This document shows positions 5,839 to 58,719 of a stretch of DNA of 64,000 nt, one piece after another; position 1 is the stretch's first letter; every line of letters begins with the position of its first letter. The notes beneath the pieces are model-generated. The model ran no database searches. It worked only from the letters and a program-made list of their open reading frames with translations, and was not told the origin of the DNA. Both the position numbers and the translations under genes were made by a program. Source of the stretch: Gemmatimonadales bacterium (lineage in GTDB: Bacteria; Gemmatimonadota; Gemmatimonadetes; Gemmatimonadales; GWC2-71-9). The DNA lies in contig JBAUHI010000086.1 in NCBI GenBank assembly GCA_049680185.1, forward strand, positions 13,231 through 77,230. The letters are read 5' to 3'.

Positions 5839-6005
5839 GCGCGCAGGAACGGCACCGGGCGGGAGGATCCCCATCGGCGGACGGAAGTGCGGGTCGGAAA
5901 AGGACGAGCGGCAAGTGCGGCAGGGCGCGCGAACGAACGGGCGGAACACAGGCGAGTTGTGGAGCGACCAACGGAGACCGGTAGAGGCCAGCTCCTCTTC
6001 TCCCT

Positions 6006-6095: not shown

Positions 6096-6111
6096 TTCTC
6101 CTCGGTCGCAA

Positions 6112-7671
6112 TCAGGCCTTCAAGTGTGCGGTCGCGGTCCGGAGCCGCTCGGCGAGGAGGGTCAGTCGCTCGGCGGAGGTGGTGAGCTCGGTCATCGCCT
6201 GGATCTGCTGCTGGGCGGAACGGGCCGCGGCATCGGAACTGCTCGCCGCACCGTGGCTCACCGCACTCACTCGGTCGAGGACCTGGCGCAGCGCGGCTTG
6301 GTGTTCGGCCTGGGCCTGGGTGCTCTCTGCCGCCGCCGCCACCCGCTCGGCGGAGCGCCGGACGCCGGCGGTGAGGTCGAGCAGCGCCTCGTCCGCCTCC
6401 CGTGCCACCCGCGCGATGTCCTGTACCTGGGATCCTCCGGAACTCATCGCTCGCTCCGCCGAGGCGATCCCCGCCTGCAGTTCCCCGACCACCTCCCCGA
6501 CCTCCCGAGCCGACCGCCCCGCCTGGGCGGCCAGGGTGCGCACCTGTTCCGCCACCACACTGAATCCGTGGCCATCGCCCTCCGCGCGCGCCGCCTCGAT
6601 GGCGGCATTGAGCGACAGGAGGTGCGTCTGCCGCGCGATCACGGCGATGGTCTGTGCAAAACTGCCGATGTTCGCACTCATCGCCGTCAGCTCCGACACG
6701 ATCCGGCCCGTGGTGGCCACCTCGTTGCCGACCGACACCAAGGTGTCGCTCGCGCGCGCCACTCGCTCCCGGGCCCGTTCCGCCACGGCCACCAATCGCG
6801 CCTCTTCATCCTCCAGGGTACGGAATCGCTCTCGCTGCAGTGCCGTCTCAGCCGCAGTACCCTCCCCTTGGCGCCGGCTGTCCTCCGCCATCAATCGCTG
6901 TTGCTGCAGGTCGTGGGCAAGGCGGTCAGCGGCCCCGGAAAGGGCATCGGCCGAGCCCTGAAGTGCGCCGGTCGTGGCCGACAACTCACCCGCGACCTTG
7001 GCCATTTCGTTGGAGTCCTGCTGCACGGCCGCGAGCAAGGTGGCCGTGGCGGATGACATCTGGTCGAATGCGGTCTCGACGGCGCCCACGGGATCGAGCG
7101 TTTTGGTGGACACCCGGAAGGTGAGATCGCCGGTGCTCGCCCGCCGAAGCCCTTCCGCAATGCGGCGCAACCGCGCCTCGGTGACGGCCGCGCGGTCGCG
7201 GAGCCCGATGCCTACGATGCTCACGATGGCAGCTTCGACAAGGGCGGCCGCGGACAGGTCCCCGCCGTTCGCGATCCACTGCGCCACCAGCACGACGATC
7301 CCGCCGGAGAGGGCGGCAAAGGCACCGGGAAGGCCTTCGTCGTCGGCGGCGTACGGGAGCGTCGCGACCAGCGGGAGCACGCCGACCCCGACCAACCCTG
7401 ACAGCGCGATCGGCGCTCCGGTGATGATCAGGTCGAGCAGCAGGGCGCCGACCCACGCGGAGCGTCCCGCAAGTCCGCGGCGTCCGAGGATCCCCGCACC
7501 GAGATTCGCAGCGCCGCCGAGGAGCAGGAGTTCCACCACCTGACTCCACGCCACATCGCCACCCGTCGCCGGCCCCGCACAGATGAGTGCGGCCACGGCG
7601 CCGAGCACCAGCCACCACCGGCGGCGGACGGTGCGCTGAAAGAGGGCGGAGGAGCTGGGCGGAGGGGCCAT
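6112..7671 (-). CDS. methyl-accepting chemotaxis protein with multi-TM N-terminal region
   Basis: The highly conserved MCP signalling hairpin LLSLNAAIEAARAEGDGHGFSVVAEQVRTLAAQAGRSAREV is present. A HAMP-like segment follows about 160 aa of hydrophobic helices. Confidence 0.9.
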   Translation of the reverse strand: MAPPPSSSALFQRTVRRRWWLVLGAVAALICAGPATGGDVAWSQVVELLLLGGAANLGAGILGRRGLAGRSAWVGALLLDLIITGAPIALSGLVGVGVLPLVATLPYAADDEGLPGAFAALSGGIVVLVAQWIANGGDLSAAALVEAAIVSIVGIGLRDRAAVTEARLRRIAEGLRRASTGDLTFRVSTKTLDPVGAVETAFDQMSSATATLLAAVQQDSNEMAKVAGELSATTGALQGSADALSGAADRLAHDLQQQRLMAEDSRRQGEGTAAETALQRERFRTLEDEEARLVAVAERARERVARASDTLVSVGNEVATTGRIVSELTAMSANIGSFAQTIAVIARQTHLLSLNAAIEAARAEGDGHGFSVVAEQVRTLAAQAGRSAREVGEVVGELQAGIASAERAMSSGGSQVQDIARVAREADEALLDLTAGVRRSAERVAAAAESTQAQAEHQAALRQVLDRVSAVSHGAASSSDAAARSAQQQIQAMTELTTSAERLTLLAERLRTATAHLKA

Positions 7672-7688
7672 CGGAAGTTCTGGTGGGG

Positions 7689-8240
7689 TCAGGCGGAGGT
7701 GAGGCCGAGGGCGGACGCCGTGATGAGGGCCTGGACCTGGTATCCGGCTGCCTCGATGGCGGCCCGGCCCCCCTCTTCGCGGTCCACCACCGCCAGGACG
7801 CCGAGCACCTTGGCACCGGCCGCCTCGACCGACCGGACCGCCTGGAGCGCCGAGCCGCCGGAGGTGATGACATCCTCGACGATCACCACGGCATCACCGG
7901 CGGACAGGTTGCCCTCGATCAGCCGGCCGGTGCCGTGGTCCTTGGCCTGCTTGCGCACGCTGAAGGCGTCGATCGAGGGCGGCGCATCGGCGCTCGCGCG
8001 CGCAATGGCGCACGCCACGGGGTCGGCGCCCATCGTGAGCCCCCCCACCGCCCGTGGCCGCCAGCCCGCGGCGTCGAGGGCGGCACGTCCCAGCCGGCCG
8101 ATGACCGCCTGGCCTTCCGCGGACATCGTGGTGAGGCGGCAATCGATATAGAAGGAGGATCGGGCACCGGAAGCGAGCACGAAATCCCCGCGCCGGACGG
8201 AGCGGCGCCCGAGGATCGCCGCGAGCGCCGGGTCGTTCAC
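7689..8240 (-). CDS. pyrE: orotate phosphoribosyltransferase
   Basis: RGDFVLASGARSSFYIDCR and the PRPP loop VVIVEDVITSGGSA. I trimmed the start from 8315 to the in-frame GTG at 8240, which overlaps the kinase stop as GTGA. Confidence 0.88.
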   Translation of the reverse strand: MNDPALAAILGRRSVRRGDFVLASGARSSFYIDCRLTTMSAEGQAVIGRLGRAALDAAGWRPRAVGGLTMGADPVACAIARASADAPPSIDAFSVRKQAKDHGTGRLIEGNLSAGDAVVIVEDVITSGGSALQAVRSVEAAGAKVLGVLAVVDREEGGRAAIEAAGYQVQALITASALGLTSA

Positions 8241-9139
8241 GATCGATCTCGGCGGAGCCACCCCGAGAGCAATCCCGGCCGCTTGGCCGAGGTCGTGGAT
8301 CGGGCCGCCGTGCAAAATGCCGTCGCGAACACGTCCACTGACTGAAAGCGCTTGCTCCGCTCCCGCTCCAGTCCCCCCATCACCGCGGCCTCGAGCTCGG
8401 GCGGGAACTTGAGGCCGCGCACCGCTTGGTTGAGGGGTGTTGGCGGTTCCTGGAGCAGTTGCTGGAAGAGCTCGCGGGGAGAACGGCCGGGGAACGGATG
8501 CGTGCCGGTGAGGAGGTAGTACGCGATGACCGCCAGGCTGTAGACATCGGCCTGTTCGCTGACGAGCTCGCCGCTCAGCGTCTCCGGTGCCACGTATTGC
8601 AAGGTCCCGACGAAGAATCCCGCGCGGGTCAGTCGCTCCTCGGGCGCGGCCTTCTCGTCCCGAGCGATGCCGAAATCGAGGAGCTTGGCGGTGCGGGTCG
8701 CCGGATCGTACATGATGTTGGCGGGCTTCAGGTCGCGATGGATGATCCCTTCAGCGTGCGCCGCCGCGAGGGCCCGTCCCAGCTGTTCGATGATGTCGGC
8801 CACCACCGCGGGCGCCAGCGTCGGGGTCTTGCCCGCGAATGTGGCCAACGGCTCCCCGGCCGCCCACTCGAGCGCCAAGTAGTAGATGTCGTCGACCTGC
8901 CCGAACCCGCGGGTCTCCACGATATTCGGGTTCCGCACCCGCCGGCCGAACTCGGCCTCGCGGAGGAATCGCTTCACGGCGACCGGGTCCTGTGCCAGGC
9001 GGTTGCGAAGGATCTTCACCGCGCTGGCACCGTACTCGGGGTGCTCGGCACGGTAGACTTCGGCGGTGCCGCCTTCACCAACGTGTTCGAGGAGCCGGTA
9101 CCCAGCGATGGTCCGGCCGATCAGGCTGTCTTGATTCAT
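8237..9139 (-). CDS. cytoplasmic Ser/Thr protein kinase
   Basis: GEGGTAEVY, AVK, HRDLKPANIM, DFGIA and GTLQYVAPE motifs. No TM segment. I chose the start at ATG 9139 (MNQDSLIGR...). Confidence 0.88.
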   Translation of the reverse strand: MNQDSLIGRTIAGYRLLEHVGEGGTAEVYRAEHPEYGASAVKILRNRLAQDPVAVKRFLREAEFGRRVRNPNIVETRGFGQVDDIYYLALEWAAGEPLATFAGKTPTLAPAVVADIIEQLGRALAAAHAEGIIHRDLKPANIMYDPATRTAKLLDFGIARDEKAAPEERLTRAGFFVGTLQYVAPETLSGELVSEQADVYSLAVIAYYLLTGTHPFPGRSPRELFQQLLQEPPTPLNQAVRGLKFPPELEAAVMGGLERERSKRFQSVDVFATAFCTAARSTTSAKRPGLLSGWLRRDRS

Positions 9140-24934: not shown

Positions 24935-25507
24935 TTAGAGCAATCCGGTGAGGGGCGTGGCGTAGTGGTTCGCCCGGGGTTCGGGAAGGCCGTAGCGGCC
25001 CTGGTCGCGGTAGAATCGCTCCCACTCCGCCCGGTAGCAGAACGGATCAAGTCCGTGCGGCCGATCCACTGGCAGCACGCCGTCGAGGTGGTCGATCTCG
25101 TGCTGTAGCAGCTCGGCCCGATCACCCTCGAGGTCGATCGAATGCTCGACGCCCTTCAGGTCCTGGTATTGGACCTTGATGCGGTAGGCCCGCATCACAC
25201 GGATCATCAGGTCCGGGATCGACAGGCAGTCATCCCACACGGTGAAGTCATCGGTGCCGATGTCGACGATCTCCGGGTTGAGGAGCGGCCAGGGCTGGTC
25301 GAGTTCCACATAGATCAGTCGCACCGGGGCGCCGATCTGGGGCGCGGCGAGGGCCCGCCCGAACCCCACGCGGGTGCGGACATCGCGGAGCGTGTCCCTC
25401 AGGTCATCGAGGACCACGCGCACCGCGGACGATCGCGGCTTCGCGATCGGTTCACAGCGGGCCCGGAGCACCGGGTCGCCAAGCAGTCGGATGCGGTGTA
25501 CGCTCAT
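24935..25507 (-). CDS. def: peptide deformylase
   Basis: Motifs LAAPQIG, DDCLSIP (EGCLS variant) and QHEIDHLDG. I trimmed the start to ATG 25507 (MSVHRIRLLGDP). Confidence 0.9.
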   Translation of the reverse strand: MSVHRIRLLGDPVLRARCEPIAKPRSSAVRVVLDDLRDTLRDVRTRVGFGRALAAPQIGAPVRLIYVELDQPWPLLNPEIVDIGTDDFTVWDDCLSIPDLMIRVMRAYRIKVQYQDLKGVEHSIDLEGDRAELLQHEIDHLDGVLPVDRPHGLDPFCYRAEWERFYRDQGRYGLPEPRANHYATPLTGLL

Positions 25508-25740
25508 CGTCGATCCGTCCTCAGAATAGGAGCGAGGCCAATATATGGGTTCTGGTGGAATTCGCACATCTCTTGAAGTAGTTGCTAAGCAAACTACTAA
25601 CACCTATTTCGGGCTTCTACCCAGGACGCAGAACAGACCAGCACCGGATGACGTCCATCAGTACAGTGCCGATGGCGGCGTCATTAAACTCTTCCCACAT
25701 CAGCGATTAGCCGTTGAGATTCCCGAAGCACGGCATTCGA

Positions 25741-25769
25741 TTGACAATCCCGACTTCCCAACATAGGAT
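25741..25769 (+). promoter_or_regulatory. candidate sigma70-type promoter of the suf operon
   Basis: TTGACA (25741-25746), a 17-nt spacer, then TAGGAT (25764-25769), about 43 nt upstream of the sufB ATG. A GGAGG RBS lies at 25798-25802. Confidence 0.45.
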
Positions 25770-25811
25770 TCACGTTTTACGGGCCAGTCGTGTCGTCGGA
25801 GGCGAGTCGCG

Positions 25812-27245
<1,434 letters not shown>

Positions 27246-31951: not shown

Positions 31952-32911
31952 ATGTCCGAGCCTGTCATCGTCGTGGAACGGGTGACCAAACGATTCGCTG
32001 GTCACACCGCGGTCCGGGACCTTTCGCTGACCGTGCCCAAGGGCGGGATCTTCGGGCTTCTGGGCCCCAACGGAGCCGGGAAGAGCACCAGCATCCGGAT
32101 GATGCTCGACATCATCGAGCCCGAAGAAGGCAAGATCTCGATCCTCGGCGGTGCGCTCGGCGCGCGGGACCTGTCGAAGCGCATCGGATTCCTTCCCGAG
32201 GAGCGCGGTCTCTACAAGAAGATGAAGGTGCTGGACCAGCTCGTGTTCATGGGCGAGATCCGCGGTCTCTCCGCCAGTCACGCACGCGAGCGTGCCGCTT
32301 GGTGGCTGGGCCAGCTGGGGCTCGGCGCCTGGATGACCAAGAAGATCGAGGACCTCTCCAAGGGCATGCAGCAGAAGGTCCAGTTCGCTGGCGCCCTGGT
32401 GCACGACCCGGAACTGCTGATCCTGGATGAGCCGTTCAGCGGCCTGGATCCGGTCAATTCGCAGATCCTGGAGGAGACCGTGGTGCAGCTGTCCCGGAGC
32501 GGGCACACCATTCTCTTCTCAACGCACAACATGGAGCAGGCCGAGAAGATGTGTGATCGGGTCGTGATCATCGCACGGGGGCAGAAAGTGGTGGATGGGT
32601 CGGTGGCGGAGGTGAAGGCGGGGTATGGCGATCGCTATGTGGCGCTGGCGTTCACGCACGATCGCGCTGCGGCCGATCGGATCCTGGCGGACCGTTCACT
32701 CGTCGCGAGCGTCAAGGACGATGGGGCCTCGGCGGAGGTCGAACTGGCGGCGGGCGCCTCGGGTGAGACGCTGCTGCGGACGCTGGTCCAGGCCGGCGTC
32801 GGATTGAGCCGCTTCGAAGTCGTCTCCCCTTCCCTGCGCACCATCTTCATTGCCAAGGTCGGCGCCGATGCAGCAACGGCCCCGGCATCGGAGGCACCGA
32901 CCCATGCATAA
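31952..32911 (+). CDS. ABC transporter ATP-binding protein (ABC-2/NatA-like)
   Basis: Walker A GPNGAGKST, signature LSKGMQQKV and Walker B LILDEPFSGLD. I trimmed the start to ATG 31952. Confidence 0.9.
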   Translation: MSEPVIVVERVTKRFAGHTAVRDLSLTVPKGGIFGLLGPNGAGKSTSIRMMLDIIEPEEGKISILGGALGARDLSKRIGFLPEERGLYKKMKVLDQLVFMGEIRGLSASHARERAAWWLGQLGLGAWMTKKIEDLSKGMQQKVQFAGALVHDPELLILDEPFSGLDPVNSQILEETVVQLSRSGHTILFSTHNMEQAEKMCDRVVIIARGQKVVDGSVAEVKAGYGDRYVALAFTHDRAAADRILADRSLVASVKDDGASAEVELAAGASGETLLRTLVQAGVGLSRFEVVSPSLRTIFIAKVGADAATAPASEAPTHA

Positions 32912-34220
32912 ACTTGCCGCGATCATTCGGAGAGAGTTCCTCGCGCGGGTCCGCACCAAGGCGTTCCTGATCAGCACCCTGCTCGGGCCCATCTTCTTCA
33001 TTGCGATCTTTGCGTTGCCGATCCTGATCCTCGGCAAGGGATCGGAAAAGATCGACCTGGTCGTGCTCGATGCCGCCAGAGGCGATCTGGGCCAGCGTGT
33101 TTCGAATGCAATATCGCAAGTCAATGTCACTAAAGCAGATACATCACATTCCATGTACAATGTAACCCGGGTCGCGACTCCACCGGACCGGCTCATTGCG
33201 GTGCGGGATTCCCTGGTCAAACTAGTCGATGTGGCCGGGGCCGGTGCCGCAAGATATGATGGGATCCTGGTGGTCACCGATTCTGGATTCCTGCAAGGTC
33301 GGCTCGACTACCTCGGCTCGAATGTGAGCAGCATGCAGGATATGGAAGGCCTGCAGCGGTTGCTACGGGGGGTCGTGCTGCAGGAACGGCTCGTCCAGGC
33401 CGGGGTGACCCCGGAGTCTGCGAAGCTTGCGGAGGCTACATTCGACATGAACACCATGAAGATCACCCATGGCGCGCTTACTGGTGAGAGCGGTGAGATG
33501 GCGTTCATGGTGGGCTATGTGATGTCGTTCATCTTGTACTTCGCGATCCTGATCTCCGGGATCCAGATCATGAGCGCTGTGGTGGAGGAGAAATCCACCA
33601 GGATCATGGAAGTGCTGATCTCAAGCGTCACGCCATTCTACCTCTTGCTTGGCAAGGTGATCGGGGTAGGGGGGGCGGTGCTGCTGCAACTGGCCATCTG
33701 GGCTGGAAGCGGCACCGTATTGAGCGTGTTCCGGGGGCCGATCGCAGGATCGATGGGAGTGCCGGCGCAACAGGCCGCCAACATCTCGATGCCCACGATC
33801 TCCCCGAACATGCTGATCATCCTCCTCGCGTTCTTCCTGCTCGGGTTCTTCCTGTTCGCGTCCGCCTATGCTGCGGTCGGCTCGATGTGCAACTCCACCC
33901 AGGAGACCCAGCAGTTCGCGCAACCACTGACGATCATGGTCCTGGTCGGGTTCTTCGGGGCGTTGGCCGCGATCAAGCACCCCGATGCGCCTGCCGCGCG
34001 GATCATGAGCTTTATCCCGTTCACATCGCCGTTCGTGGTCCCGGTCCGGTATGCGATATCGCCACTGCCATGGACCGAAGTCATAGCGTCGATGCTGGTG
34101 ACGCTGGCTGGAGGTCTGGCGGTCGTCTGGATAGCTGGCAGGATCTATAGGATCGGCGTCCTCGCGTACGGCAAGCGGCCAACCCCAAAGGAGATCTTCC
34201 GCTGGATCCGAGCTGGCTGA
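32904..34220 (+). CDS. ABC-2 family transporter permease (NatB-like)
   Basis: N-terminal TM, a large extracytoplasmic loop, then 5 C-terminal TM helices. The ATG overlaps the ATPase stop by 8 nt. Lower GC than the neighbours. Confidence 0.8.
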   Translation: MHKLAAIIRREFLARVRTKAFLISTLLGPIFFIAIFALPILILGKGSEKIDLVVLDAARGDLGQRVSNAISQVNVTKADTSHSMYNVTRVATPPDRLIAVRDSLVKLVDVAGAGAARYDGILVVTDSGFLQGRLDYLGSNVSSMQDMEGLQRLLRGVVLQERLVQAGVTPESAKLAEATFDMNTMKITHGALTGESGEMAFMVGYVMSFILYFAILISGIQIMSAVVEEKSTRIMEVLISSVTPFYLLLGKVIGVGGAVLLQLAIWAGSGTVLSVFRGPIAGSMGVPAQQAANISMPTISPNMLIILLAFFLLGFFLFASAYAAVGSMCNSTQETQQFAQPLTIMVLVGFFGALAAIKHPDAPAARIMSFIPFTSPFVVPVRYAISPLPWTEVIASMLVTLAGGLAVVWIAGRIYRIGVLAYGKRPTPKEIFRWIRAG

Positions 34221-34240
34221 CCGCACTCCGGGTCTAGACC

Positions 34241-34274
34241 AGAACCCCAGCGATACAGCTGGGGTTCTGCGTTT
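34241..34274 (+). terminator. rho-independent-like terminator
   Basis: Stem AGAACCCCAGC / GCTGGGGTTCT with a 6-nt loop, followed by GCGTTT. Confidence 0.6.
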
Positions 34275-34322
34275 CAGGGTGTTCGCGCGCCCCGGTAGTG
34301 CAAGAGCGTGACCAACCCCCCA

Positions 34323-34338
34323 TGTTTCACGTGAAACA
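34323..34338. promoter_or_regulatory. parS centromere site
   Basis: TGTTTCACGTGAAACA is a perfect 16-bp palindrome matching the canonical parS consensus TGTTNCACGTGAAACA. It lies 122 bp upstream of parA. Confidence 0.85.
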
Positions 34339-34460
34339 GGTGGTATCGGTTGGCCTTCTCTTATTGGAACCGGTATATTGGTGCAATAGGCTCATCATTC
34401 CACTGTTGTACTACACAGTTGTGCTTAACATAACTAATTGCAATAGAAAGACATATACAC

Positions 34461-35267
34461 ATGTCGAGGGTCATTGCGATTGCCAACCAGAAGGGCGGGG
34501 TGGGGAAGACCACTACCGCGGTGAATCTGGCGGCCTCTTTGGCGATCAGCGAGCGGCGCACCCTGCTCATCGACGCGGATCCGCAGGGCAACGGCACCAG
34601 TGGTGTCGGTATCGCGCGGAACTCGATCCGGTACTCGCTGTATGACTCGCTCATCGACGGCCGGCCCGCGTCGGACGCGATCATCCCGCATCCCCTGTTG
34701 CAGCACCTCTCGGTGTTGCCGGCGACGCAGGATCTCGTCGGTGCGGAACTCGAGATGGTCGAGCGTCCCGATCGGGAGACCACCCTGCGTCGGGTGCTGG
34801 AGCCGATCCGAGGCGAATACGAGTTCGTGCTGGTGGACTGCCCGCCCTCCTTGGGGCTCATCACTCTCAACGTGCTGACCGCGGCGGATGGCGTCCTCAT
34901 CCCGATCCAGTGCGAGTATTACGCGCTCGAGGGGATCAGCCAGCTGCTCAACACGATCAACCTGGTGCAGCAGAACTTCAATCCGACGCTCCAGATCGAC
35001 GGCGTGCTCCTCACGATGTACGATCAGCGGCTCAACCTGTCGCGTCAGGTGGCGGACGAAGCGCGGGAATACTTCGGCCCGAAGGTCATACGCGCAGCGG
35101 TGCCCCGGAACATCCGCCTGGCCGAGGCGCCGAGCTTCGGGAAGCCGATCCTCCTCTATGACGTGCAGTCGGTCGGGGCCAAGAGCTACCTGGCTGCCGC
35201 GCAGGAGTTGATGAAGCGCGTAGGCACCCCCGCTGCGGCCGGCCGGGATCGGGAGGTGACCAAGTGA
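34461..35267 (+). CDS. parA: chromosome partitioning ATPase ParA/Soj
   Basis: Deviant Walker [19 protein letters not shown] and overall Soj-like sequence. Confidence 0.95.
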
Positions 35268-36924: not shown

Positions 36925-37280
36925 TGGCAGTCACCAACGGCAGAACCGAATCCGCCACGCTGTCCATCATCGCCGCCGGCACGGTCGTGACCGGGGACGT
37001 GATCACCGAAGGCGTGTTGAAGGTCGAAGGACAGGTGATCGGGAATGTCCGGGCCGCTCAGCAGCTGCTGGTGGCACGGGGTGGTTCGGTGCAGGGCAAT
37101 ATCGAGACCGGTCAGGCGGTCATCGGGGGCCTGGTGAGCGGAAATGTGACCGCCGGCGATCGGGTCGAGATCCAGGGGGCCGCGTCGGTCGAAGGGGATA
37201 TCATCGCCAAGCGGCTGGTGGTATTGGAGGGGGGGCGGCTCAATGGCTCGCTCGAAATGAGGACCGAACCGGCTGCCTGA
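36924..37280 (+). CDS. bactofilin (DUF583) cytoskeletal protein
   Basis: Repetitive beta-helix pattern G.V.GDV...G.V.GNV... throughout. The ATG overlaps the M23 stop by 1 nt. Confidence 0.9.
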   Translation: MAVTNGRTESATLSIIAAGTVVTGDVITEGVLKVEGQVIGNVRAAQQLLVARGGSVQGNIETGQAVIGGLVSGNVTAGDRVEIQGAASVEGDIIAKRLVVLEGGRLNGSLEMRTEPAA

Positions 37281-37396
37281 ACTGGTGGCCGGACCTTCCA
37301 CAAAAGTTGAAAAACAGGCCAAGTTTGTGGATATCAACCGCTTAGGACATGTGCTTCCCACTGTGTTTCACGGCAGATGAGGCAAATTCCTATACA

Positions 37397-38374
37397 ATGA
37401 AATCATTGTCACCTCTGTGTATCGTCACTGTCTTTACAGTGTTCTCTGGGTGTGCTGGGCACTCGAAGCCGCTCGGTTTTCGGGTCGGTCTGGTCACTCC
37501 GGGATCGATCGCCGATGCCGCTTGGAACAGCGGCGCGTATCGTGGGCTGCGACAGATCTCCGACTCGCTCCACGTGCAGGTGAGCAACGTGGAAGCGGGC
37601 TCGCCGGGCGCGCAGGAGGAAGCCCTGCGCAGTTACGCCGCCCAGGGTTACCAGCTGGTGTTCGCCCACGGGTTCGAGTTCCAGGGCGCCGCCGAACGGG
37701 TGTCGCAAGACTACCCCAATGCGGTCTTCATCATCACCTCCGGCGAACGCCAGGTCGGGAACGTCGCGCCCTTGGTGTTCCGGATCGAGGAGGCCACCTA
37801 CCTCGCTGGGATGGTGGCCGGTGGGATGACCAAGACGGACAAGATCGGGTTCATCGGTGGCATCGAATTGCCGCCGATCAAGCGCGGCTACGAGGGCTGG
37901 TCTCGCGGGGCCCGCGCGATGGACCCCAAGGTCGAGAGCCGAGTGATCTATCTCAACAGCTTTGACGATGCCGCGGCCGGGCGCGAGGCCGCCATCCAGT
38001 TGATGGGCCTGGGTGTCGACATGTTGCACCACAACGCCGATGCCGCCGCGCTGGGTGTCTTCCAGGCGGTGAAGGATCGGCCCGGGGTCTACATCTTCGG
38101 CGCCAACGCCGATCAGCACGAACTGGCGCCGGGCCACGTGCTCGGGTCGGCAGTCATCGATCTTCCCCGCGCCATGCTTCTGGTGGCGCGCGAGGTCCAC
38201 GATGGCCGGTTCACACCGCACGTGGAGTCGTTCGGTCTGGCGAGCGGCGTCGTCAAGTACGTTCCCGACCCGGCCCTGGCCGACCGGGTCCCCGCAACCG
38301 TGGCGCGTCGGGTGGCTGCCGCGGGAGACTCGATCGCCGCAGGGACGCTCATCCCGGTCCCGGATCCCAATTGA
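37397..38374 (+). CDS. BMP-family (PnrA/Med-like) ABC substrate-binding lipoprotein
   Basis: Lipobox VFSGC, and BMP-family motifs (DAAWNSGAYRGL, GYQLVFAHGFEF, IGFIGGIELPPI). The start is ATG 37397. Confidence 0.85.
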   Translation: MKSLSPLCIVTVFTVFSGCAGHSKPLGFRVGLVTPGSIADAAWNSGAYRGLRQISDSLHVQVSNVEAGSPGAQEEALRSYAAQGYQLVFAHGFEFQGAAERVSQDYPNAVFIITSGERQVGNVAPLVFRIEEATYLAGMVAGGMTKTDKIGFIGGIELPPIKRGYEGWSRGARAMDPKVESRVIYLNSFDDAAAGREAAIQLMGLGVDMLHHNADAAALGVFQAVKDRPGVYIFGANADQHELAPGHVLGSAVIDLPRAMLLVAREVHDGRFTPHVESFGLASGVVKYVPDPALADRVPATVARRVAAAGDSIAAGTLIPVPDPN

Positions 38375-44027: not shown

Positions 44028-45005
44028 ATGCTGTTGCTGACGATGACCGCGCTCGTCCTCGCGAACTTTCAACAGGGGGCGACCCCGCCCCGGCCCCCGC
44101 GCCCGCCGCGCGCCCCGATCGTGGTGACGCCAAGGGTGCACGTGGATGTGTCGGCCGATCGGGACGATCAGGCCGATGAGGACGGCAGCACTGCCGGGAC
44201 CACCGACACGACCATCGCGGTCGAGAAGGGTGTGCGCCTTTCGGTCGACAACTTCTCCGGCCACATCACCGTGGTCGGGTGGGACCAGGACAAGGTCCGC
44301 GTGAAGACCGGCGGCGATGATCAGAGCGGTGTCGATGTGTCGGGTGGGACCGTGACCCTGCGGGTCAACGGCAATGGTGGACGCTGGGGAGACCAGGAGG
44401 ATCACGACATCACCGTCTCCGTGCCGGCCTGGATGGAGCTCGACCTGAGCGGCAACGAGGTGGACATCGATGTAAGCGGCGTTCGCGGGTCGGTGCGGGC
44501 GGAGACCGTCGAAGGCACCGTCTCGCTCAAGGGCGGCGATGGCACCATCTCCCTCAAGTCCGTCGACGGCGACATCACCGTCTCCGGTGCGAAGGGACGG
44601 ATCGGACTCAACACCGTGGAAGGGGAGATCCGCGCGACCGACATCGCCGGCGACCTCGACGTGCAGTCGGTGGACGGAGAGATCACCCTGGACGGGGTGG
44701 ACTCGCGTTCGGTGAATGCGAGCTCGGTGGATGGCTCGATCCGCTTCTCGGGCCCGATCAACGCGGGCGGGACGTACCATCTCGAGTCCCACGACGGCGA
44801 TGTGGTCCTCCTGACCGACGGTGCGCCCGACGCGGTGATGTCGATCAGCACCTTCGATGGTGAGTTCGAATCCGATTACCCGGTGACCGTGACCGGTGCC
44901 AATTCCAACCGGCGGATGACCTTCACGCTGGGCGCCGGCAAGGCCCGGGTGGAGCTGCAGACGTTCGACGGCAAGATCTCACTGCGGCGCGCACCTGCGC
45001 GCTGA
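44028..45005 (+). CDS. DUF4097-family beta-helical repeat protein
   Basis: Repeats of the type V.G.I.L/V.G.V.V...SVDGDITV...TVEGEIRA...SVDGEITL...SVDGSIRF. N-terminal hydrophobic segment, then a PRPPRPPRAP linker. Confidence 0.75.
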   Translation: MLLLTMTALVLANFQQGATPPRPPRPPRAPIVVTPRVHVDVSADRDDQADEDGSTAGTTDTTIAVEKGVRLSVDNFSGHITVVGWDQDKVRVKTGGDDQSGVDVSGGTVTLRVNGNGGRWGDQEDHDITVSVPAWMELDLSGNEVDIDVSGVRGSVRAETVEGTVSLKGGDGTISLKSVDGDITVSGAKGRIGLNTVEGEIRATDIAGDLDVQSVDGEITLDGVDSRSVNASSVDGSIRFSGPINAGGTYHLESHDGDVVLLTDGAPDAVMSISTFDGEFESDYPVTVTGANSNRRMTFTLGAGKARVELQTFDGKISLRRAPAR

Positions 45006-45027
45006 ACCATCCAGACGGAGCGATGCG

Positions 45028-45810
45028 ATGCGCGGTTCGATGATGCTTCTGACGCTGGCCCTCGCGGCGGGGACCGCCGCACCGGCAGCGGCGCAGGATT
45101 TCAGCTGGAAGGGCACGTTGGCGGCGGGGAAGATGCTCGAGGTGAGAGGCGTGATCGGCGGGATCCACGCCAGTCTCGCCTCGGGAGATCAGATCGAGGT
45201 GACGGCGACCAAGCGGGGGCGCCACAGCGATCCCGCAGACGTGAAGATCCAGGTGGTGCCGTGGGATGGCGGGGTCACCATCTGTGCCGTCTACCCGACG
45301 CCGCGGCGCGCCCGCCACGAGAACGAGTGCGCCCCGCAAGGCGGCGGTTCGATGAGCACCGACAACAACGATGTGTCGGTGGAGTTCACGGTGAAGGTGC
45401 CTGCCAAGGTGAACTTCACCGGGGCCACGGTCAACGGGCAGGTGTCGGCAGACGGCCTGGGCGGCGATGCCGACCTGTCGACCGTCAACGGCGACGTATC
45501 AGTGAGCGCTGCCGGAGTGGTCGAGGCGACGACAGTGAACGGATCGATCGACGCCACGAGCGGGAAGAACAACTGGGAGGGAGCGCTCAAGTTCAACACC
45601 GTCAACGGCGGGATCACACTGCGGGTGCCCGATGGGCTGAATGCCGACCTGCGGGCGTCCACCGTCAACGGCAGGATCACCACCGACTTCCCGGTGACCG
45701 TCACGGGCTCGATGAGCCCGCGGAGCCTCAAGGGGAGGATCGGGACTGGCGGACGGGATCTCGACATGGAGACGGTGAACGGGTCGATCGAGATACGGAA
45801 GAAAGGCTAG
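45028..45810 (+). CDS. DUF4097-family beta-helical repeat protein (second paralogue)
   Basis: Signal peptide MRGSMMLLTLALAAGTAAPAAAQ. Repeats TVNGQVSA, TVNGDVSV, TVNGSIDA, TVNGGITL, TVNGRITT and TVNGSIEI. Confidence 0.8.
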   Translation: MRGSMMLLTLALAAGTAAPAAAQDFSWKGTLAAGKMLEVRGVIGGIHASLASGDQIEVTATKRGRHSDPADVKIQVVPWDGGVTICAVYPTPRRARHENECAPQGGGSMSTDNNDVSVEFTVKVPAKVNFTGATVNGQVSADGLGGDADLSTVNGDVSVSAAGVVEATTVNGSIDATSGKNNWEGALKFNTVNGGITLRVPDGLNADLRASTVNGRITTDFPVTVTGSMSPRSLKGRIGTGGRDLDMETVNGSIEIRKKG

Positions 45811-45902: not shown

Positions 45903-46277
45903 TCACTCTGGTGGCTTTTCTTCGAACTGTTCCCAGAGCGCGATGCGATTGCCATCGGGATCGGCAACGAGGGCCATGATCCCCCACGATTGGCGGGTCG
46001 GCTCCGATACGAACGTCACACCGGCGTCCATCAGGTCACTGCAATAATCCAGTATGCCAGGAATGTGGAGCACCAGACCCGTGTCGCGGCCCACCATCTC
46101 CTTGGCACTGGGATGATTGGCCGGATGCACGCCGAGCTTGGTGCCGCCGACGAAGAACTCGGCGCCGAACGTTCCCTGCTTGGCGAGCGGGAGCTTGAGC
46201 GTGTCGCGATAGAACGCGATGGCGCGTTCGATGTCAGTGACAAAGATGGCGGCGGAGTAGAGCGATGGGGCGGTCAT
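45903..46277 (-). CDS. VOC/glyoxalase-bleomycin-resistance family protein
   Basis: IFVTDIERAIAFYRDTLKL...GVHPANH...DPDGNRIALWE is the typical VOC fold signature. Confidence 0.85.
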   Translation of the reverse strand: MTAPSLYSAAIFVTDIERAIAFYRDTLKLPLAKQGTFGAEFFVGGTKLGVHPANHPSAKEMVGRDTGLVLHIPGILDYCSDLMDAGVTFVSEPTRQSWGIMALVADPDGNRIALWEQFEEKPPE

Positions 46278-46536
46278 GGGGGTGGCGAGTGGCGGGTGGT
46301 GGGTGAAATGCGACGGGTGCCGGCTCCGGCGTGAAACCTAGCGGGATGACGTTCGGTGACACCCTTCCTCACAAGTAGAGAGGCTCCATCGCGGCCCCGC
46401 TCATGCGCGAGTGGACTCGCGGCTGCAACATATTGGAAAACACTGACCTGTGGGGGTCGCCTGCGGAGACCCTTTGCGGATGGCTCGGAGATTCAAGTGT
46501 GGGTCGCCGCAAGCGACCCCCACGCCTCATCGGAGC

Positions 46537-46680
46537 TACTTCCCCTTCCCGCTCTCCACCGCCGACAAGTTCCGCTGCAATCCCGCCCGCCCCGCCCGCG
46601 CCAGCGGTGTTCCGCCGACGCGGTCCTCGATCAATTGCCGTCTGTGGAACGCATGCACCACCGTTTGAACTCCGAGACGT
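46537..46680 (-). pseudogene. orphan duplicated 3' end of queG (about 45 codons, no upstream body)
   Basis: The minus-strand frame reads ...AFHRRQLIEDRVGGTPLARAGRAGLQRNLSAVESGKGK*. This parallels the C-terminus of the intact QueG, ...DFEERFGGTPLARAGREGLLRNVAAVEQGG*. A 31-nt near-identical core lies at 46586-46616 and at 47240-47270. Confidence 0.6.
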
Positions 46681-47158
46681 TGCCGAGCACCACGGCGGAG
46701 TCGGGCGGAATAACCGGCTTGGCCGTGAAGTCTCGGGTAACGAGTTCAGCAACCTCGGAGGCCCATTCATCATCAGGATCCGGCGGGCGGGCCGAATCAG
46801 CACGCACCACCACGTGGAGTATCGGCAGTCCCTGGCGGTCAAGCCCGACGTATATCCCAGCCATCCCGACATCCATATGACCAGATTGCTGAAACCGCAG
46901 TGCATAAGGCCTTAAACCGTCACACCGATACCAACGCTTCGAGTCATCGGCGAATAGGGCCCATTGCCCATCCCGAACGGAATCAGGAAGCACAACCGAG
47001 GGCGGCACATCTCCGGTCAACCTGAACTGGTAGTCGACATATGCCACAGGATAGCAATACGGCGTGAAGCCCATCACGGCGAGCCCCACAAGAACGGGTG
47101 TCAACCAACCCCTTCCATGCAACGGTCGTGTGCCCTGCATCTCGGTCAAGATCCGCAT
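46631..47158 (-). CDS. hypothetical membrane-anchored protein on a low-GC insert
   Basis: ATG 47158 is preceded by AAGGTGAGG. One TM (WLTPVLVGLAVMGF), then a 140-aa domain with no recognisable motif. GC and GC3 are visibly lower than in the flanking genes. Confidence 0.5.
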   Translation of the reverse strand: MRILTEMQGTRPLHGRGWLTPVLVGLAVMGFTPYCYPVAYVDYQFRLTGDVPPSVVLPDSVRDGQWALFADDSKRWYRCDGLRPYALRFQQSGHMDVGMAGIYVGLDRQGLPILHVVVRADSARPPDPDDEWASEVAELVTRDFTAKPVIPPDSAVVLGNVSEFKRWCMRSTDGN

Positions 47159-47195
47159 TGGCCTCACCTTCCCGGCTAGTGATGAGTGCCCTTCC

Positions 47196-48119
47196 TCAGC
47201 CACCCTGCTCCACCGCCGCGACATTTCGAAGGAGCCCTTCCCGCCCCGCCCGCGCCAGCGGTGTCCCGCCAAAACGCTCCTCGAAGTCCCGATCCGACAT
47301 CCGGTCGAGTGTTGCAGCCGTGACACCCGCGAGCGGCCTCCGGTCGGCGAACTCGGCGATGCTGCTCTCCCGAGCAAAGCGCTCGTTCCATGGGCAAACA
47401 TCATTGCAGATGTCGCACCCGAACGCCCACCCCGAGAGTTTGGGTGCCAACTCGTCAGGGATCGGCCCATCCTGCTCGATGGTCAGGTAGGAGATGCAGC
47501 GCGTGGCATCGACCACACCCGGCTCCACAAAGGCGCCGGTGGGGCAGGCGTCGAGACATCGGGTGCAGCTGCCGCAATGCTCCGCCTCGAAGGGTGCGTC
47601 GACCGCGAGCAGGAGGTCGGTGAACACGGTCCCGATGAAACAGAACGACCCGACACCGGGCCTGATGAGCATGGCGTTCTTGCCGATCCACCCCAACCCC
47701 GCTCGCCGGGCCAGTTCACGTTCTGGCACCGGGCCATCGTCCACCCAGGGGTGCGCGACGGTCGCACCCTCGGTGCGGAGGAAGCCCGCCAGTGCCTGGA
47801 GTCGCTTGTATGTGACGGTGTGGTAGTCACTGCCGCGAGCATACTTGGCCACCCGTGGCGCACGTCGCGAGTCGTCGGTCTCGGCGTGGTAGTAGTTCTC
47901 CAGCACGATCACCGCGCGGCGGGCGCGGGGGACGATGTGCGCCGGATCGCGGCGCTTGGCCGCCTGCCGATGGAGGTAACGCATGACACCGGCGTGGCCC
48001 GCCGCGAGCCAGCGATCGAAGCGGTCGGCCTGCGCATTAGGGGCCAGGTCGGTGACGCCGCACGCGACGAATCCGAGCTCGGCGGCGCGGGCCTTGACCC
48101 GTTCGGCGAGGAGCGTCAC
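47196..48119 (-). CDS. queG: epoxyqueuosine reductase QueG
   Basis: Ferredoxin motifs CGSCTRCLDACPTGA and FGCDICNDVCPWN, plus SYLTIE. I trimmed the start to GTG 48119, which overlaps the ndh stop (GTGA). Confidence 0.9.
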   Translation of the reverse strand: MTLLAERVKARAAELGFVACGVTDLAPNAQADRFDRWLAAGHAGVMRYLHRQAAKRRDPAHIVPRARRAVIVLENYYHAETDDSRRAPRVAKYARGSDYHTVTYKRLQALAGFLRTEGATVAHPWVDDGPVPERELARRAGLGWIGKNAMLIRPGVGSFCFIGTVFTDLLLAVDAPFEAEHCGSCTRCLDACPTGAFVEPGVVDATRCISYLTIEQDGPIPDELAPKLSGWAFGCDICNDVCPWNERFARESSIAEFADRRPLAGVTAATLDRMSDRDFEERFGGTPLARAGREGLLRNVAAVEQGG

Positions 48120-49396
48120 CAGCGTGGTTCGGGGGGGCGTGCGGACGCTTCGCCGTAGATGAGGCGGGCGCCGAGTCCGTAGGTGAAATACGACCAGCCC
48201 CACTGCAGCATCACCAGGACGCGATTGCGGAAGCCGATCAGGAAGAAGATGTGGACGAAGATCCAGGCCAGCCACGCGGAAAAGCCATGGAAGCCGAAGC
48301 GCCGGATATCGGCGACGGCGCGGCCGCGACCGATGACCGCGAGCTGGCCCTTGTCGAGATAGTGGAAAGGCGGCCGCGACCTTCCAGTGAGGTCCTGGAT
48401 GATCGCGCGGGCGGCGTAGTTCCCCATCTGAATGGCGACCGGGCAGATACCAGGGAGCGTGGCGCCGCCCTGATGTTCGAAGGCTGCGGCGTCACCCAGG
48501 ACGAAGAGATCGGGGTGCCCGGGAACAGTGCATTCGGGTGTGACCAGCACCCGCCCCTGGCGGTCGAGTGGCGCATCGAGGGAACGGGTGAGCGGACTGG
48601 CGGTATTGCCGGCGGCCCAGACCACCGTGCGGGTGGGAATGGTCCATCCGGCAGCCTGCACGGCATCAGGATCGACCGAGGTGACGAGGGTATCGGTGCG
48701 GACATCGACGCCCAGGTGGCGGAGGGCCTGCTTGGCCCAGTCGCTCTGTTCCGGCGGATAGCTGGTGAGGAGGCGAGGTCCGCCCTCGAGGAGGAGCACC
48801 GAGGCATCGCGCGGGTCGATGTGGCGGAAGTCACGCCGAAGAGCGTAGCGGCGGATCTCCGCGATGGCGCCGGCCATCTCGACCCCGGTGGGGCCGCCGC
48901 CGATGACCACGAAGGTGAGCAGTTGCTGGCGACGGACCAGGTCACGTTCGCGTTCGGCGGCCTCGAAGGCGAGGAGGATCCGTCGGCGGATGGCGAGCGC
49001 GTCCTCGAGATTCTTGAGTCCCGGCGCCGAACCTTCCCACTGGTCGTTCCCGAAGTACGAATGCCGCGCGCCGGTGGCAACGATGCAGTAGTCGTACTGA
49101 ATACTACTACCATCAGCGAGTGTGATGGCCTTGGCGTTCGGGTCGATCCGATCGGCGGTGCCGAGGAGGACGTCGACGTTCTTTTGGCGGCGGAGGATCG
49201 AGCGGATCGGTGAGGCGATGTCGCTCGGGCTCAAGGCCGCGGTGGCCACCTGGTAGAGCATCGGCTGGAAGAGGTGGTGGTTCCGTCGATCGACGAGCGT
49301 GACGTGGACGGGGGAATTCCGGAGCGCCTTGGTGGCGTAGAGTCCAGCGAATCCGCCGCCGAGGATCACTACGTTCGGGGTCGTCGTGGATGCCAC
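48116..49396 (-). CDS. ndh: type II NADH dehydrogenase (NDH-2) / FAD-dependent pyridine nucleotide-disulfide oxidoreductase
   Basis: Dinucleotide folds VVILGGGFAG and VVIGGGPTGVE. C-terminal membrane-association helices. GTG start. Confidence 0.88.
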   Translation of the reverse strand: MASTTTPNVVILGGGFAGLYATKALRNSPVHVTLVDRRNHHLFQPMLYQVATAALSPSDIASPIRSILRRQKNVDVLLGTADRIDPNAKAITLADGSSIQYDYCIVATGARHSYFGNDQWEGSAPGLKNLEDALAIRRRILLAFEAAERERDLVRRQQLLTFVVIGGGPTGVEMAGAIAEIRRYALRRDFRHIDPRDASVLLLEGGPRLLTSYPPEQSDWAKQALRHLGVDVRTDTLVTSVDPDAVQAAGWTIPTRTVVWAAGNTASPLTRSLDAPLDRQGRVLVTPECTVPGHPDLFVLGDAAAFEHQGGATLPGICPVAIQMGNYAARAIIQDLTGRSRPPFHYLDKGQLAVIGRGRAVADIRRFGFHGFSAWLAWIFVHIFFLIGFRNRVLVMLQWGWSYFTYGLGARLIYGEASARPPEPRW

Positions 49397-56759: not shown

Positions 56760-56965
56760 GCGATCACCGAGGCCTGGTAGCCCGCGGCCGACACGGCGGC
56801 GGAGACGCTCTCCGGCGAGAGCTTCGATTCATCGTACTCGAGTTCGGCGCGTCCCATCTTGACCGAGCCGAGCTTGACGCCATCCATCTTGGACAGGGTC
56901 TGATTGACGGTGTTGAGGCAGTGTCCGCAGGACATACCGGTGATGGAGAGGGTGAGGGGCTTCAT
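56756..56965 (-). CDS. copZ: copper chaperone (HMA domain)
   Basis: MKPLTLSITGMSCGHCLNTV contains the MxCxxC motif. ATG 56965 is preceded by GAGGAG. Confidence 0.85.
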   Translation of the reverse strand: MKPLTLSITGMSCGHCLNTVNQTLSKMDGVKLGSVKMGRAELEYDESKLSPESVSAAVSAAGYQASVIA

Positions 56966-56982
56966 GGTTGGACTCCTCAAAA

Positions 56983-57052
56983 GGCTGGAGGCTGAGGGCT
57001 AGAGGCTCGCTGGTAGCTGGTAGCTGGTAGCTGGTAGCCAACCACCAACTCT
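56983..57052. repeat. tandem heptamer array (GGCTNNN x4, TGGTAGC x4, CAAC-type x2)
   Basis: GGCTGGA GGCTGAG GGCTAGA GGCTCGC TGGTAGC TGGTAGC TGGTAGC TGGTAGC CAACCAC CAACTCT. It lies between the predicted cop promoter and the copZ RBS. Confidence 0.85.
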
Positions 57053-57076
57053 ACATAGGGTAGGGGGGTATGTCAA
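57048..57076 (-). promoter_or_regulatory. candidate sigma70-type promoter of the cop operon with C-tract spacer
   Basis: The minus strand reads TTGACA (57076-57071), the 17-nt spacer TACCCCCCTACCCTATG, then TAGAGT (57053-57048). The spacer resembles half of the GC-rich CsoR operator type. Confidence 0.45.
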
Positions 57077-57114
57077 GCATATATGTATGTTGCCTTGTTA
57101 CAACGACTTACGGT

Positions 57115-58719
57115 TTAGTCACCGGCCCGCACCGGTCGGTCGACGTCGACAGCAACGGGTTGGCGGAAGGGACCGTCAGAAGGCAGGATGAACCAGAACG
57201 TACTCCCGAAATTGATCATCGACTCGGCACCGATCTGGCCGCCGTGCAGTTCCACGAAGCGCTTGCAGAGCGCCAAACCCAACCCCGAGCCCTGGACCCG
57301 CCGACTGGGAGAGCTGTCGACCTGGCTGAACTCCACGAAGAGCTTCGACATGTCCTCGGCCTTGATGCCGATCCCGTTGTCACTCACCGCCACCCACACC
57401 GCAGGTCGGGTCATGCGCTTGACCTCATCGCCGGCCCGGTCGGAGGGGACTGGCAACGGCGCCTCGGTGGCCAGGGCGCGGAGGACGATCTCGCCGCCTT
57501 CAGGGGTGAACTTGGACGCGTTGGCCAGCAGGTTGAAGAGGATCTGCTGGACCCGCACGGCATCGGCGAGCGCAATGAGCGGCGTCTCCGGCAGTTCGAA
57601 GCGGTGCACCTGCTTGCGGCCGACACGGAGCCCCTCGGTGTCGGCCACGGCAGCGCGAATGGCATCGCGCAGATCGGTGCGGGTCAGCTCGAGCGCCATT
57701 CGACCCGCATCCATCCGCGACATATCAAGGACGGCGTTGATCAACCGGAGCAGGTGCCGTCCGTTGCGATTGATCGACCCCACGAACTCCTGATGCCCGG
57801 GCGCGACCGCGCCGACATCGCCGGTGAGGAGAAGGTCGGAGAAGCCGATGATGGCGTTGAGCGGGGTCCGCAATTCGTGCGACACGTTGGCGAGGAACTC
57901 ATCCTTCAGCTGGGTGGCGTGCCGCAGCTCCCGGTTCTTCTCCGCCAACTCAACGGCATTGCGCTGACTCTCTTCGAAGACATTGGCACGATCGAGACCC
58001 AAGGCGGCCTGATCGGCAAGCGCCTGCATCAGGTAGAGATCGTCCTCCCGGAACGATTGCCCCGCTCGCCGGTTCATGACCCACACGGCGCCGATCACGA
58101 GGCCACCGGATCGAAGCGGCGTCATCACAGCGGACGTGAGCGCGTCGGGGGTATCGGGAAATTCGAAGTTGCGCGGATCCAGTCGCATGTCGTTGGTGAT
58201 GAGCGGCTGGTCATGGCTCACGACCCATCCGGCGAGCGACCCGTCCACCGGGATCAGCCGGTCGACGGCGTGCGCCATCAGCCCGGTCCCGGCCAGGACG
58301 CGCAGGAAACGCCCCTCCTCCGCCACCAAGCCTATGCCGGAGGCCTCCGCATCGAGCAATTCAGCCGCGAGCCGCGCGATCTCGTGAAAGAGCTCCGCCA
58401 GGGGACGGCCAGAGAGGAGCACCTGGGAGAGGTGCCGGAAGGATTCGAGCTCGCGGTTTCGGGCGGCGGCAGCGTCAAGCTCGCGGGCAAAGCCGTGGAG
58501 CGACGCGTTGACGGTCTCCAGCGCTCGACGCCTGGCATAGAGCGCCAACACGCTGGCCAGTATCATCCCACCGGCGCCGACCAGGACGTCCCCGTCGTAG
58601 ACGAGCAGCCACCCGATCCAGCCGGAAACGACCGCCGCCACAAGGATGATCGGCGTCCAGCCGACCCGTGCGGCCACGGTGCGCCGCATTGCGTCCACAT
58701 CCCGGGGAGATTCTGACAT
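57115..58719 (-). CDS. sensor histidine kinase with TM and GAF domains (no adjacent response regulator)
   Basis: H-box SHELRTPLNAIIGFSDLL, and N/G boxes LANASKFT and DNGIGI...GSGLGLALC. A GAF-like region lies between the TM helices and HisKA. Confidence 0.9.
   Translation of the reverse strand: MSESPRDVDAMRRTVAARVGWTPIILVAAVVSGWIGWLLVYDGDVLVGAGGMILASVLALYARRRALETVNASLHGFARELDAAAARNRELESFRHLSQVLLSGRPLAELFHEIARLAAELLDAEASGIGLVAEEGRFLRVLAGTGLMAHAVDRLIPVDGSLAGWVVSHDQPLITNDMRLDPRNFEFPDTPDALTSAVMTPLRSGGLVIGAVWVMNRRAGQSFREDDLYLMQALADQAALGLDRANVFEESQRNAVELAEKNRELRHATQLKDEFLANVSHELRTPLNAIIGFSDLLLTGDVGAVAPGHQEFVGSINRNGRHLLRLINAVLDMSRMDAGRMALELTRTDLRDAIRAAVADTEGLRVGRKQVHRFELPETPLIALADAVRVQQILFNLLANASKFTPEGGEIVLRALATEAPLPVPSDRAGDEVKRMTRPAVWVAVSDNGIGIKAEDMSKLFVEFSQVDSSPSRRVQGSGLGLALCKRFVELHGGQIGAESMINFGSTFWFILPSDGPFRQPVAVDVDRPVRAGD

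Follow-up and report, generated by a model that had tools for sequence, protein, structure and literature searches.

A 654-nucleotide insertion behind queG in a Gemmatimonadales genome carries a candidate orphan Rhs-immunity gene

In gut Bacteroidales, orphan immunity genes occur in clusters for acquired interbacterial defence (AID) and in rAID-1 clusters, the latter being defined by a XerD-like recombinase followed by a co-oriented array of immunity genes with repeated intergenic motifs (10.1101/471110). In turn, elements that target the 3' ends of genes, such as tRNA and tmRNA islands, SGI1 at trmE and ICESt-type elements, carry a replacement for that end, and cis-mobilizable elements (CIMEs) are integrase-less remnants (PMC5704250; PMC8409611). 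Here, we analyzed a stretch of 64,000 nucleotides (nt), hereafter the window, of a Gemmatimonadales bacterium (GWC2-71-9; GCA_049680185.1, contig JBAUHI010000086.1, forward-strand positions 13,231-77,230), in which a 654-nt unit behind the epoxyqueuosine reductase gene queG carries a single small open reading frame (ORF), ORF175, and is followed by a second queG-like 3' end. We read this unit as a horizontally acquired insert at the queG 3' end that brought in an orphan Rhs-immunity gene together with an imported end for queG (tail A), a reading that, taken as a whole, we place slightly above an even chance.

Like the orphan immunity genes of Rhs, contact-dependent inhibition, type VI secretion and AID systems, ORF175 is small, of skewed composition, homologous to genes that follow toxin genes and without a toxin of its own, and it seems to have been acquired horizontally. 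Unlike rAID-1, it is a single gene with no array, XerD-like recombinase or intergenic repeats, and its host is a soil Gemmatimonadales; moreover, in contrast to the known orphan immunity systems, its presumptive toxin domain and its own family are without a model in Pfam or NCBIfam and without a counterpart among PDB folds, and immunity is predicted from context. With the 3'-end-targeting elements and CIMEs the insert shares direct repeats of the target's 3' end, an intact target, a displaced tail and an empty site in relatives; it differs from them in measuring only 654 nt, holding one gene, having no integrase nearby and lying at a site unused in 80 other loci, and in that its repeats show a pattern of identity that is explained by ordinary conservation of the tail. 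A resemblance to integron cassettes is also seen, as the unit is cassette-sized and apparently a promoterless single gene expressed from an upstream promoter, whereas it lacks an attC site (R''/L''/L'/R', GTTRRRY) as well as IntI and attI, and its repeats are housekeeping coding sequence.

On the minus strand of the window the order is ndh (48116-49396), queG (47196-48119), ORF175 (46631-47158), the second queG-like tail, a long hairpin and a gene of the VOC/glyoxalase family (45903-46277), the conserved downstream neighbour of queG, on the far side of the insertion site. The start of queG overlaps the stop of ndh by 4 nt, and the gene is intact, as the initial annotation had stated: its 307-aa product ends in ERFGGTPLARAGREGLLRNVAAVEQGG (stop codon 47196-47198), matches Pfam QueG_DUF1730 and Fer4_16, possesses the DUF1730 domain, the 4Fe-4S double-cluster domain and the C-terminal GGTPLxRxG motif of QueG, and is 84-92% identical to the QueG proteins of Gemmatimonadales. 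The contig has a GC content of 67%, and the top queG matches were exclusively metagenome-assembled genomes of Gemmatimonadales. Furthermore, an independent Logan contig (L002; SRR28012370, 1303 bp) carries the queG tail, ORF175 and the second tail in a form identical to the window, which excludes a binning artefact.

The order ndh, queG, a variable interval and the VOC gene is conserved in about 80 Gemmatimonadales loci, and the comparison with empty sites proposed in the initial annotation could be made in the closest of them. The syntenic relatives L101-L105 and L004 show ndh, queG, VOC and two DUF4097 genes in a row, with neither ORF175 nor a second tail; the arrangement is thus not common to all relatives, a possibility that the initial annotation had named as one that would speak against its proposal. 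Their queG-VOC gaps are short, measuring 198 nt in L101, L102 and L103 (QueG 86% identical), which continue with the window's two DUF4097 genes, 178 nt in L104 (88%), 48 nt in L105 (84%) and 91 nt in L004 (78%), while the gap of the window is 918 nt, that is, 654 plus 264 nt. Since the relatives have such short gaps without ORF175 or a second tail, the 654-nt unit behind queG is an insertion.

The cargo of the insertion is compositionally foreign. ORF175 (175 aa) has a GC content of 58.7%, within the 1.4th percentile of equal-sized windows, and a third-position GC content (GC3) of 0.64, against 0.76-0.87 in five neighbour genes, which agrees with the low values noticed at first sight. It had been described as belonging to no recognisable family, and this holds for Pfam and NCBIfam; nevertheless, an exhaustive search with a hidden Markov model (HMM) among 1.84 billion proteins returned 14 matches, mostly of 119-195 aa, and several of these probably have an Rhs-type HExxH toxin as partner. 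The family, of signal-anchored proteins of some 160-195 aa, is rare and became visible only through this exhaustive search, because a word-indexed search of 5.8 billion proteins had given one homologue (P0002, 82% identical). Common to its members are a hydrophobic N-terminal segment that closes with a Cys and in some of them resembles a lipobox, and the conserved motifs PDS, YV.LD, LHVV and WC; the conserved Cys residues (PYC, RC.G, WC) may form disulfides in an exported protein. The AlphaFold (AF2) model of ORF175 (pLDDT 84) has a helix at residues 19-30 and a beta-rich domain. A dN/dS of 0.33 between ORF175 and P0002 (0.19 in the core of the protein) shows the marks of purifying selection. 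In addition, low GC is found in family members whatever the host, as in L098, where the gene has 55.6% GC in a contig of 68-71%.

In four independent metagenome contexts (L001, L086, L095/L096 and L098-L100) a family member lies 10-17 nt 3' of a C-terminal domain with an HExxH motif (HELGHTxQF). In L098-L100, P0011 starts 17 nt past a 476-aa protein, with an IS3-type transposase further downstream. The L098 protein (6553-7983) contains an Rhs/YD core, as it matches the Rhs-associated core TIGR03696 (E 4e-21, 75 bits; cut-off 32.5), although its match to TEN_YD-shell is weak (E 5.7e-5, 21.8 bits, below the Pfam cut-off of 50); the core ends in DPAGLQAGINLYAFAGNDP, which contains DPAGL, a PxxxxDPxGL-type motif, and is followed by the C-terminal domain with TLAHELGHTLQF. 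Homologous C-terminal domains precede P0004 in L086 (2-550; THELGHTFQF) and P0002 in L001 (2-406; MHELGHTIQF), and the end of another precedes P0009 in L095/L096 (L095 3-95), the contigs L001, L086 and L095 being too short to show a core. These toxin domains are 31-49% identical pairwise and have a Gly/Ala-rich hydrophobic stretch ahead of the HELGHTxQF motif. They can be called zincin-like, on the strength of weak zincin (M66/M12) matches around HExxH; apart from these, neither Pfam nor NCBIfam has a model for them, and no fold in the PDB corresponds.

Immunity genes are typically recognised by their place behind a toxin domain together with a small size, a signal for export, a low GC content and occurrence in tandem or solitary copies, and for this reason ORF175 is quite probably an orphan gene of immunity to a polymorphic toxin of the Rhs type, a function predicted from the surroundings of its homologues. 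Neither this toxin domain nor this immunity family had been described before. By neighbourhood, judged within the 64-kb window, ORF175 is an orphan: the window holds no toxin homologue and no further member of the family, and the gene is flanked by queG and VOC. Two overlapping tandem paralogues of the family were found in L087 (69-548 and 545-1036), a contig of 69% GC, and constitute a small immunity array. No toxin remnants were found upstream of solitary family members, and no shared motif downstream of family members.

The footprint of the insertion in queG is a direct repeat of 77 nt (46554-46630 and 47208-47284; spacing 654 nt), 78% identical, ungapped and in frame. The copy that forms the functional 3' end of queG, tail A, reads FEERFGGTPLARAGREGLLRNVAAVE, and its counterpart in tail B reads IEDRVGGTPLARAGRAGLQRNLSAVE. 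Tail B, the disused queG 3' end (46536-46630), closes with the peptide IEDRVGGTPLARAGRAGLQRNLSAVESGKGK and a stop codon at 46536-46538. The initial annotation had reported an orphan tail at 46680-46537; a second tail is real, but the end given for it is off by one base, its frame remains open far upstream of 46680, and homology to queG begins only at 46630, immediately past the ORF175 stop. Past the shared GTGGAG, the similarity between A and B is not significant in a gapped local alignment (p 0.34). Within the repeat, a 31-nt core (46586-46616 and 47240-47270) has a single-base difference between the copies, as first noted, and exists in exactly two copies in the 64 kb with up to 3 mismatches allowed, against none in 100 shuffles.

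The idea that this core is a special site was not borne out. Its 24 central nt are identical at 22-23 positions in L003, L101, L104 and L105 and at 16 of 24 in the more distant L004, and such conservation is due to the fact that it encodes TPLARAGR with GC-rich codons; the core is accordingly nothing more than the best-conserved part of this tail. Further core copies beside low-GC cargo, which had been suggested as a place to look, were not encountered, given that there are only two copies in the 64 kb and that the other low-GC spots examined are ordinary genes: the stretches 25200-26200, 32800-35000 and 37000-37800 hold genes for a peptide deformylase, SufB, an ABC-2 permease, a ParA-type ATPase and a Bmp lipoprotein, and these examined stretches are not islands. 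A further low-GC stretch of the window lies at 56800-57400.

Over 26 codons, tails A and B are 77% identical in nucleotides and differ by about nine synonymous and nine non-synonymous changes, both kinds having been noticed before, with a dS of 0.56 and a dN/dS of 0.33. The identities between the tails and their orthologues cover a similar range (73-81% overall), being 78% for A and L101, 81% for A and L104, 81% for A and L105, 79% for B and L105 and 76% for B and L003. In comparison, the queG body has a dS of 0.63 to the nearest relative, L003, and ORF175 a dS of 0.32 to its closest homologue, in L001. The 31 codons of tail B are uninterrupted by any frameshift or stop and retain the conserved residues, with I and V at sites that are F in every QueG compared and a dN/dS of 0.41-0.60 against orthologues. 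Both tails have thus diverged to the level of orthologous tails from different species of the clade while keeping a coding signature; the age of their split is close to that of a split between species and exceeds that of the split between ORF175 and its L001 homologue, and both evolved mostly as coding sequence. A recent duplication of the tail in place appears excluded by this divergence, and, as both copies are still coding-like, an imported replacement 3' end fits better; one of the tails most likely came with the insert from another species of the clade.

An older duplication in place was also considered, in which an illegitimate insertion of ORF175 would have copied about 90 nt of the native tail and the copies would have diverged there to 77%. 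The repeat does begin exactly at the ORF175 stop codon, and donor-type flanks, as in L001, show short similarities to both tail ends. Even so, we regard this origin as highly improbable, since the tail dS of 0.56 is close to the between-species level and above the 0.32 of ORF175 and L001, the insert is absent from all syntenic relatives, the unused copy has neither decayed by frameshift or stop nor lost conserved residues, and the composition of ORF175 has not been ameliorated.

Which of the two tails is the old one is weakly suggested by parsimony and by slight similarity trends. To the left of the core, tail A agrees with L003 at 18 of 21 positions and tail B at 15 of 21; to the right, B agrees at 21 of 33 and A at 16 of 33. 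Likewise, in a blastn comparison L003 aligns with queG and tail A as far as the core edge at 47241, beyond which tail B gives the better match, and a switch from A to B at the core is the chimeric pattern expected from a crossover within it. We therefore favour, with modest confidence, an imported right part of tail A and a native right part of tail B, because the donor would then need only ORF175 behind an intact queG. In this respect, the proposal of the initial annotation that an incoming element had supplied a replacement 3' end stands as regards the insertion, the foreign cargo and the ortholog-level divergence of the tails, and is less firmly supported as to which tail is old.

Several observations weigh against the reading as a whole. 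With respect to the tails, on the right of the core A agrees with L104 at 23 of 33 positions, and its REGL..RNV recurs in the 86-88% relatives P0020 and P0021; the synonymous distances that separate either tail from L003 lie inside the range shown by the queG body and do not single out a native tail. With respect to the expected intermediates, none of the relatives that lack the insert has a queG ending exactly as tail B does (RAGLQRNLSAVESGKGK before the stop), and an exact-match metagenome scan for the predicted junction of core and tail B gave no matches; neither the donor arrangement, a queG ending in REGLLRNVAAVEQGG and followed by ORF175 with no relic, was found in scans of genome and metagenome contigs, nor a circular junction of the insert in the contig scans. 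Concerning the cargo, ORF175 had no match in Pfam, NCBIfam, or PDB sequence and fold searches and matches no known immunity family or fold, and neither ORF175 nor the toxin domain had any match in scans of the GTDB representative genomes, of metagenome and viral contigs or of plasmids.

Part of this evidence would suit the reverse polarity, by which tail A is native and ORF175 with tail B, perhaps with the hairpin region, was imported from a donor that was already duplicated. Besides the agreement with L104, the motif that tail A shares with P0020 and P0021 extends to GREGL.RNV.AV, the first 150 nt or so past tail B, hairpin included, do not align with the intergenic regions of relatives, and tail B looks relaxed in its constraint, with I and V in place of a universal F and the dN/dS values given above. 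The reverse polarity is nonetheless distinctly unlikely in our judgement, as it requires a donor with ORF175 upstream of a queG tail, which amounts to an earlier event of the same kind; furthermore, the nearest relative, L003, is closer to B than to A on the right of the core, and a relaxed constraint on B is expected whichever polarity holds.

The ends of the unit are informative about how the joins could have been made. Homology between the window and the toxin-immunity pair of L001 starts at about 47172, 12-25 nt before the start of ORF175 and at the position of the L001 toxin stop; at the other side it extends about 17 nt beyond the ORF175 stop (12 of 17 identical) and ends abruptly where the core begins. 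Tail B opens with these 17 nt, which agree with the queG tail of L105 at 16 of 17 positions, so that the right junction lies in a patch where the L001 flank and the queG tail resemble each other. Under the favoured polarity, DNA from a related Gemmatimonadales would have arrived with ORF175 directly behind the donor's own queG end; the first join may have formed by recombination within the conserved TPLARAGR stretch of the queG tail and the second at the ORF175 stop, in the patch of resemblance between the donor flank and the start of the tail. As a result, queG would keep working with a partly imported tail A, and the native tail B and the native terminator would be displaced downstream. The flanking direct repeats would also permit a clean loss of the insert by recombination.

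Three routes are compatible with these joins: a Campbell-type or circular single crossover of a unit that mimics the tail, homology-facilitated illegitimate recombination with queG as anchor and a microhomology at the other end, and a trans-acting integrase. Homology-facilitated illegitimate recombination is known from transformation studies, where recipient DNA is usually deleted or replaced. The queG insert resembles it in having one join in strong homology and the other at a short similarity patch that ends the foreign gene, and departs from its usual outcome in that a 77-nt duplication was left. To our knowledge, natural competence is not known for this organism.

The third route leads to a CIME-like miniature element, namely a decayed or satellite unit of 654 nt whose att site mimics the queG 3' end and whose insertion, as well as any later move, would be owed to a tyrosine or serine recombinase supplied from elsewhere, such as an integrative and conjugative element that has departed. 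The initial annotation had proposed a decayed islet or a cassette moved in trans, and this stands as one possible mechanism among several, with neither an integrase nor recurrence at the site having been found. In its favour, direct repeats built from the 3' end of the target enclose the cargo, relatives show an empty site, and CIMEs by definition retain attL and attR without integration genes (PMC5704250). Moreover, a family member 47% identical to ORF175, P0003, lies in a 1020-bp unit between 166-nt repeats that include the 3' end of a tRNA-Arg(CCG), which is the classical signature of tandem att sites made by an integrase. In opposition, no recombinase is encoded in the 654-nt unit or in its flanks of conserved core genes, confirming the earlier statement that no mobility gene is present here, the low-GC spots of the window that were examined are ordinary genes, and the core is merely the most conserved part of the tail. 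Among the 80 other Gemmatimonadales loci, none has a second queG tail within 4 kb, using as queries the window tails and each locus's own tail (elements larger than 4 kb would escape), and none of the 10 largest ORFs downstream of queG, taken at one or two from each of eight loci with different downstream content, encodes an integrase; there is, on this evidence, no sign that the queG 3' end would be a recurrent attachment site. In addition, the junction between the element arm and the tRNA in the P0003 unit was found in no genome of the representative-genome scan. Taken together, we consider a CIME-like element unlikely.

In the P0003 unit (contig L083; repeats 1-166 and 1021-1186, 96% identical), the ORF175-family gene (366-866) is the sole gene, and both repeats combine the same non-tRNA arm, 65 nt or more in length, with the last 45 nt of Gemmatimonadales tRNA-Arg(CCG), beginning within the anticodon loop, and the terminator of the tRNA operon. 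The tRNA fragment was missed by ARAGORN and Rfam and was identified through its 28 nt in Gemmatimonadales tRNA-Arg(CCG) genes. The unit is present in two samples (L083 and L084), and one contig from another sample breaks at the repeats. It is conceivable that genes of the ORF175 family travel in general as recombinase-less cassettes of less than 1 kb that mimic a housekeeping 3' end (queG here, tRNA-Arg(CCG) in L083), are inserted by crossover, expressed from the host transcript and lost by looping out, a generalization that we hold to be very doubtful; if true, it would represent a miniature 'immunity cassette' form of integrative element that has not yet been described.

Regarding expression, ORF175 starts after a spacer of 37 nt behind the queG stop (47159-47195), in which a purine-rich, Shine-Dalgarno-like element, GGAAGGTGAGG, is present, and no terminator-like hairpin occurs between the two genes. 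A 74-nt imperfect palindrome (46450-46523) begins 12 nt past the tail B stop, with a stem of 17 plus 5 bp, -57 kcal/mol and z -4, and GUGUUUUCC comes directly after it. The palindrome has no second copy in the window, nor does it align with intergenic sequence from relatives, whose terminators differ. The hairpin is probably the terminator of a queG-ORF175 transcript. With a spacer of this kind and a terminator-like structure only past tail B, ORF175 is apparently co-transcribed with queG, promoterless and using the original terminator, and would be translated off the queG transcript. Its N-terminal hydrophobic helix may anchor the product in the envelope or export it there, where it would neutralise a toxin delivered by competitors that carry the toxin-immunity pair. 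An attC-like role of the same hairpin was rejected, as it lacks GTTRRRY/RYYYAAC core sites. In the empty site of L101 (2085-2282), short GCGGACT repeats stand in tandem in the intergenic sequence, which also has a GC-rich hairpin of its own that resembles a terminator.

The queG-VOC interval varies among the Gemmatimonadales, with 1-3.7 kb in most loci and down to 30-91 nt in L076 and L004. In most loci (e.g., L006, L029, L077 and L081) it contains DinB-like, DUF2905-like and DUF4112-like genes, as guessed from sequence motifs, and these genes are absent from the clade of the window. In L003, the closest relative (87% at the nucleotide level), similarity to the window does not extend past the right edge of the queG core, and the region past queG (4880-8710) holds, up to the contig end, a sigma-54 activator without receiver domain and family-less ORFs with 60-64% GC; no integrase was found in these 3.8 kb, which may be another variable region at the same spot. 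In the window itself, the DUF4097-type pair (44028-45810) encodes paralogues of 325 and 260 aa with about 31% mutual identity and is kept beside VOC in close relatives, an RNase P RNA of bacterial class A lies at 1132-1529 on the minus strand (264.6 bits), and no tRNA gene occurs in the 64 kb.

In brief, the insertion is real, a function can be assigned to its cargo with fair confidence, and the footprint first proposed for this locus proved largely right. A function is thereby proposed for a gene that has no Pfam or NCBIfam family and one close relative in protein databases, and a previously unnamed Rhs toxin domain (HELGHTxQF) is defined together with its immunity family. The acquisition of an orphan immunity gene is documented in Gemmatimonadota, an abundant but poorly studied soil phylum. 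Furthermore, the footprint is an unusually clean natural case of a gene added to the end of a housekeeping operon with replacement of the end of the host gene, in which a comparison of the imported tail with the displaced one is still possible at the level of single codons. If the tRNA-Arg case of L083 reflects the same process, tiny integrase-less units may spread defensive genes.

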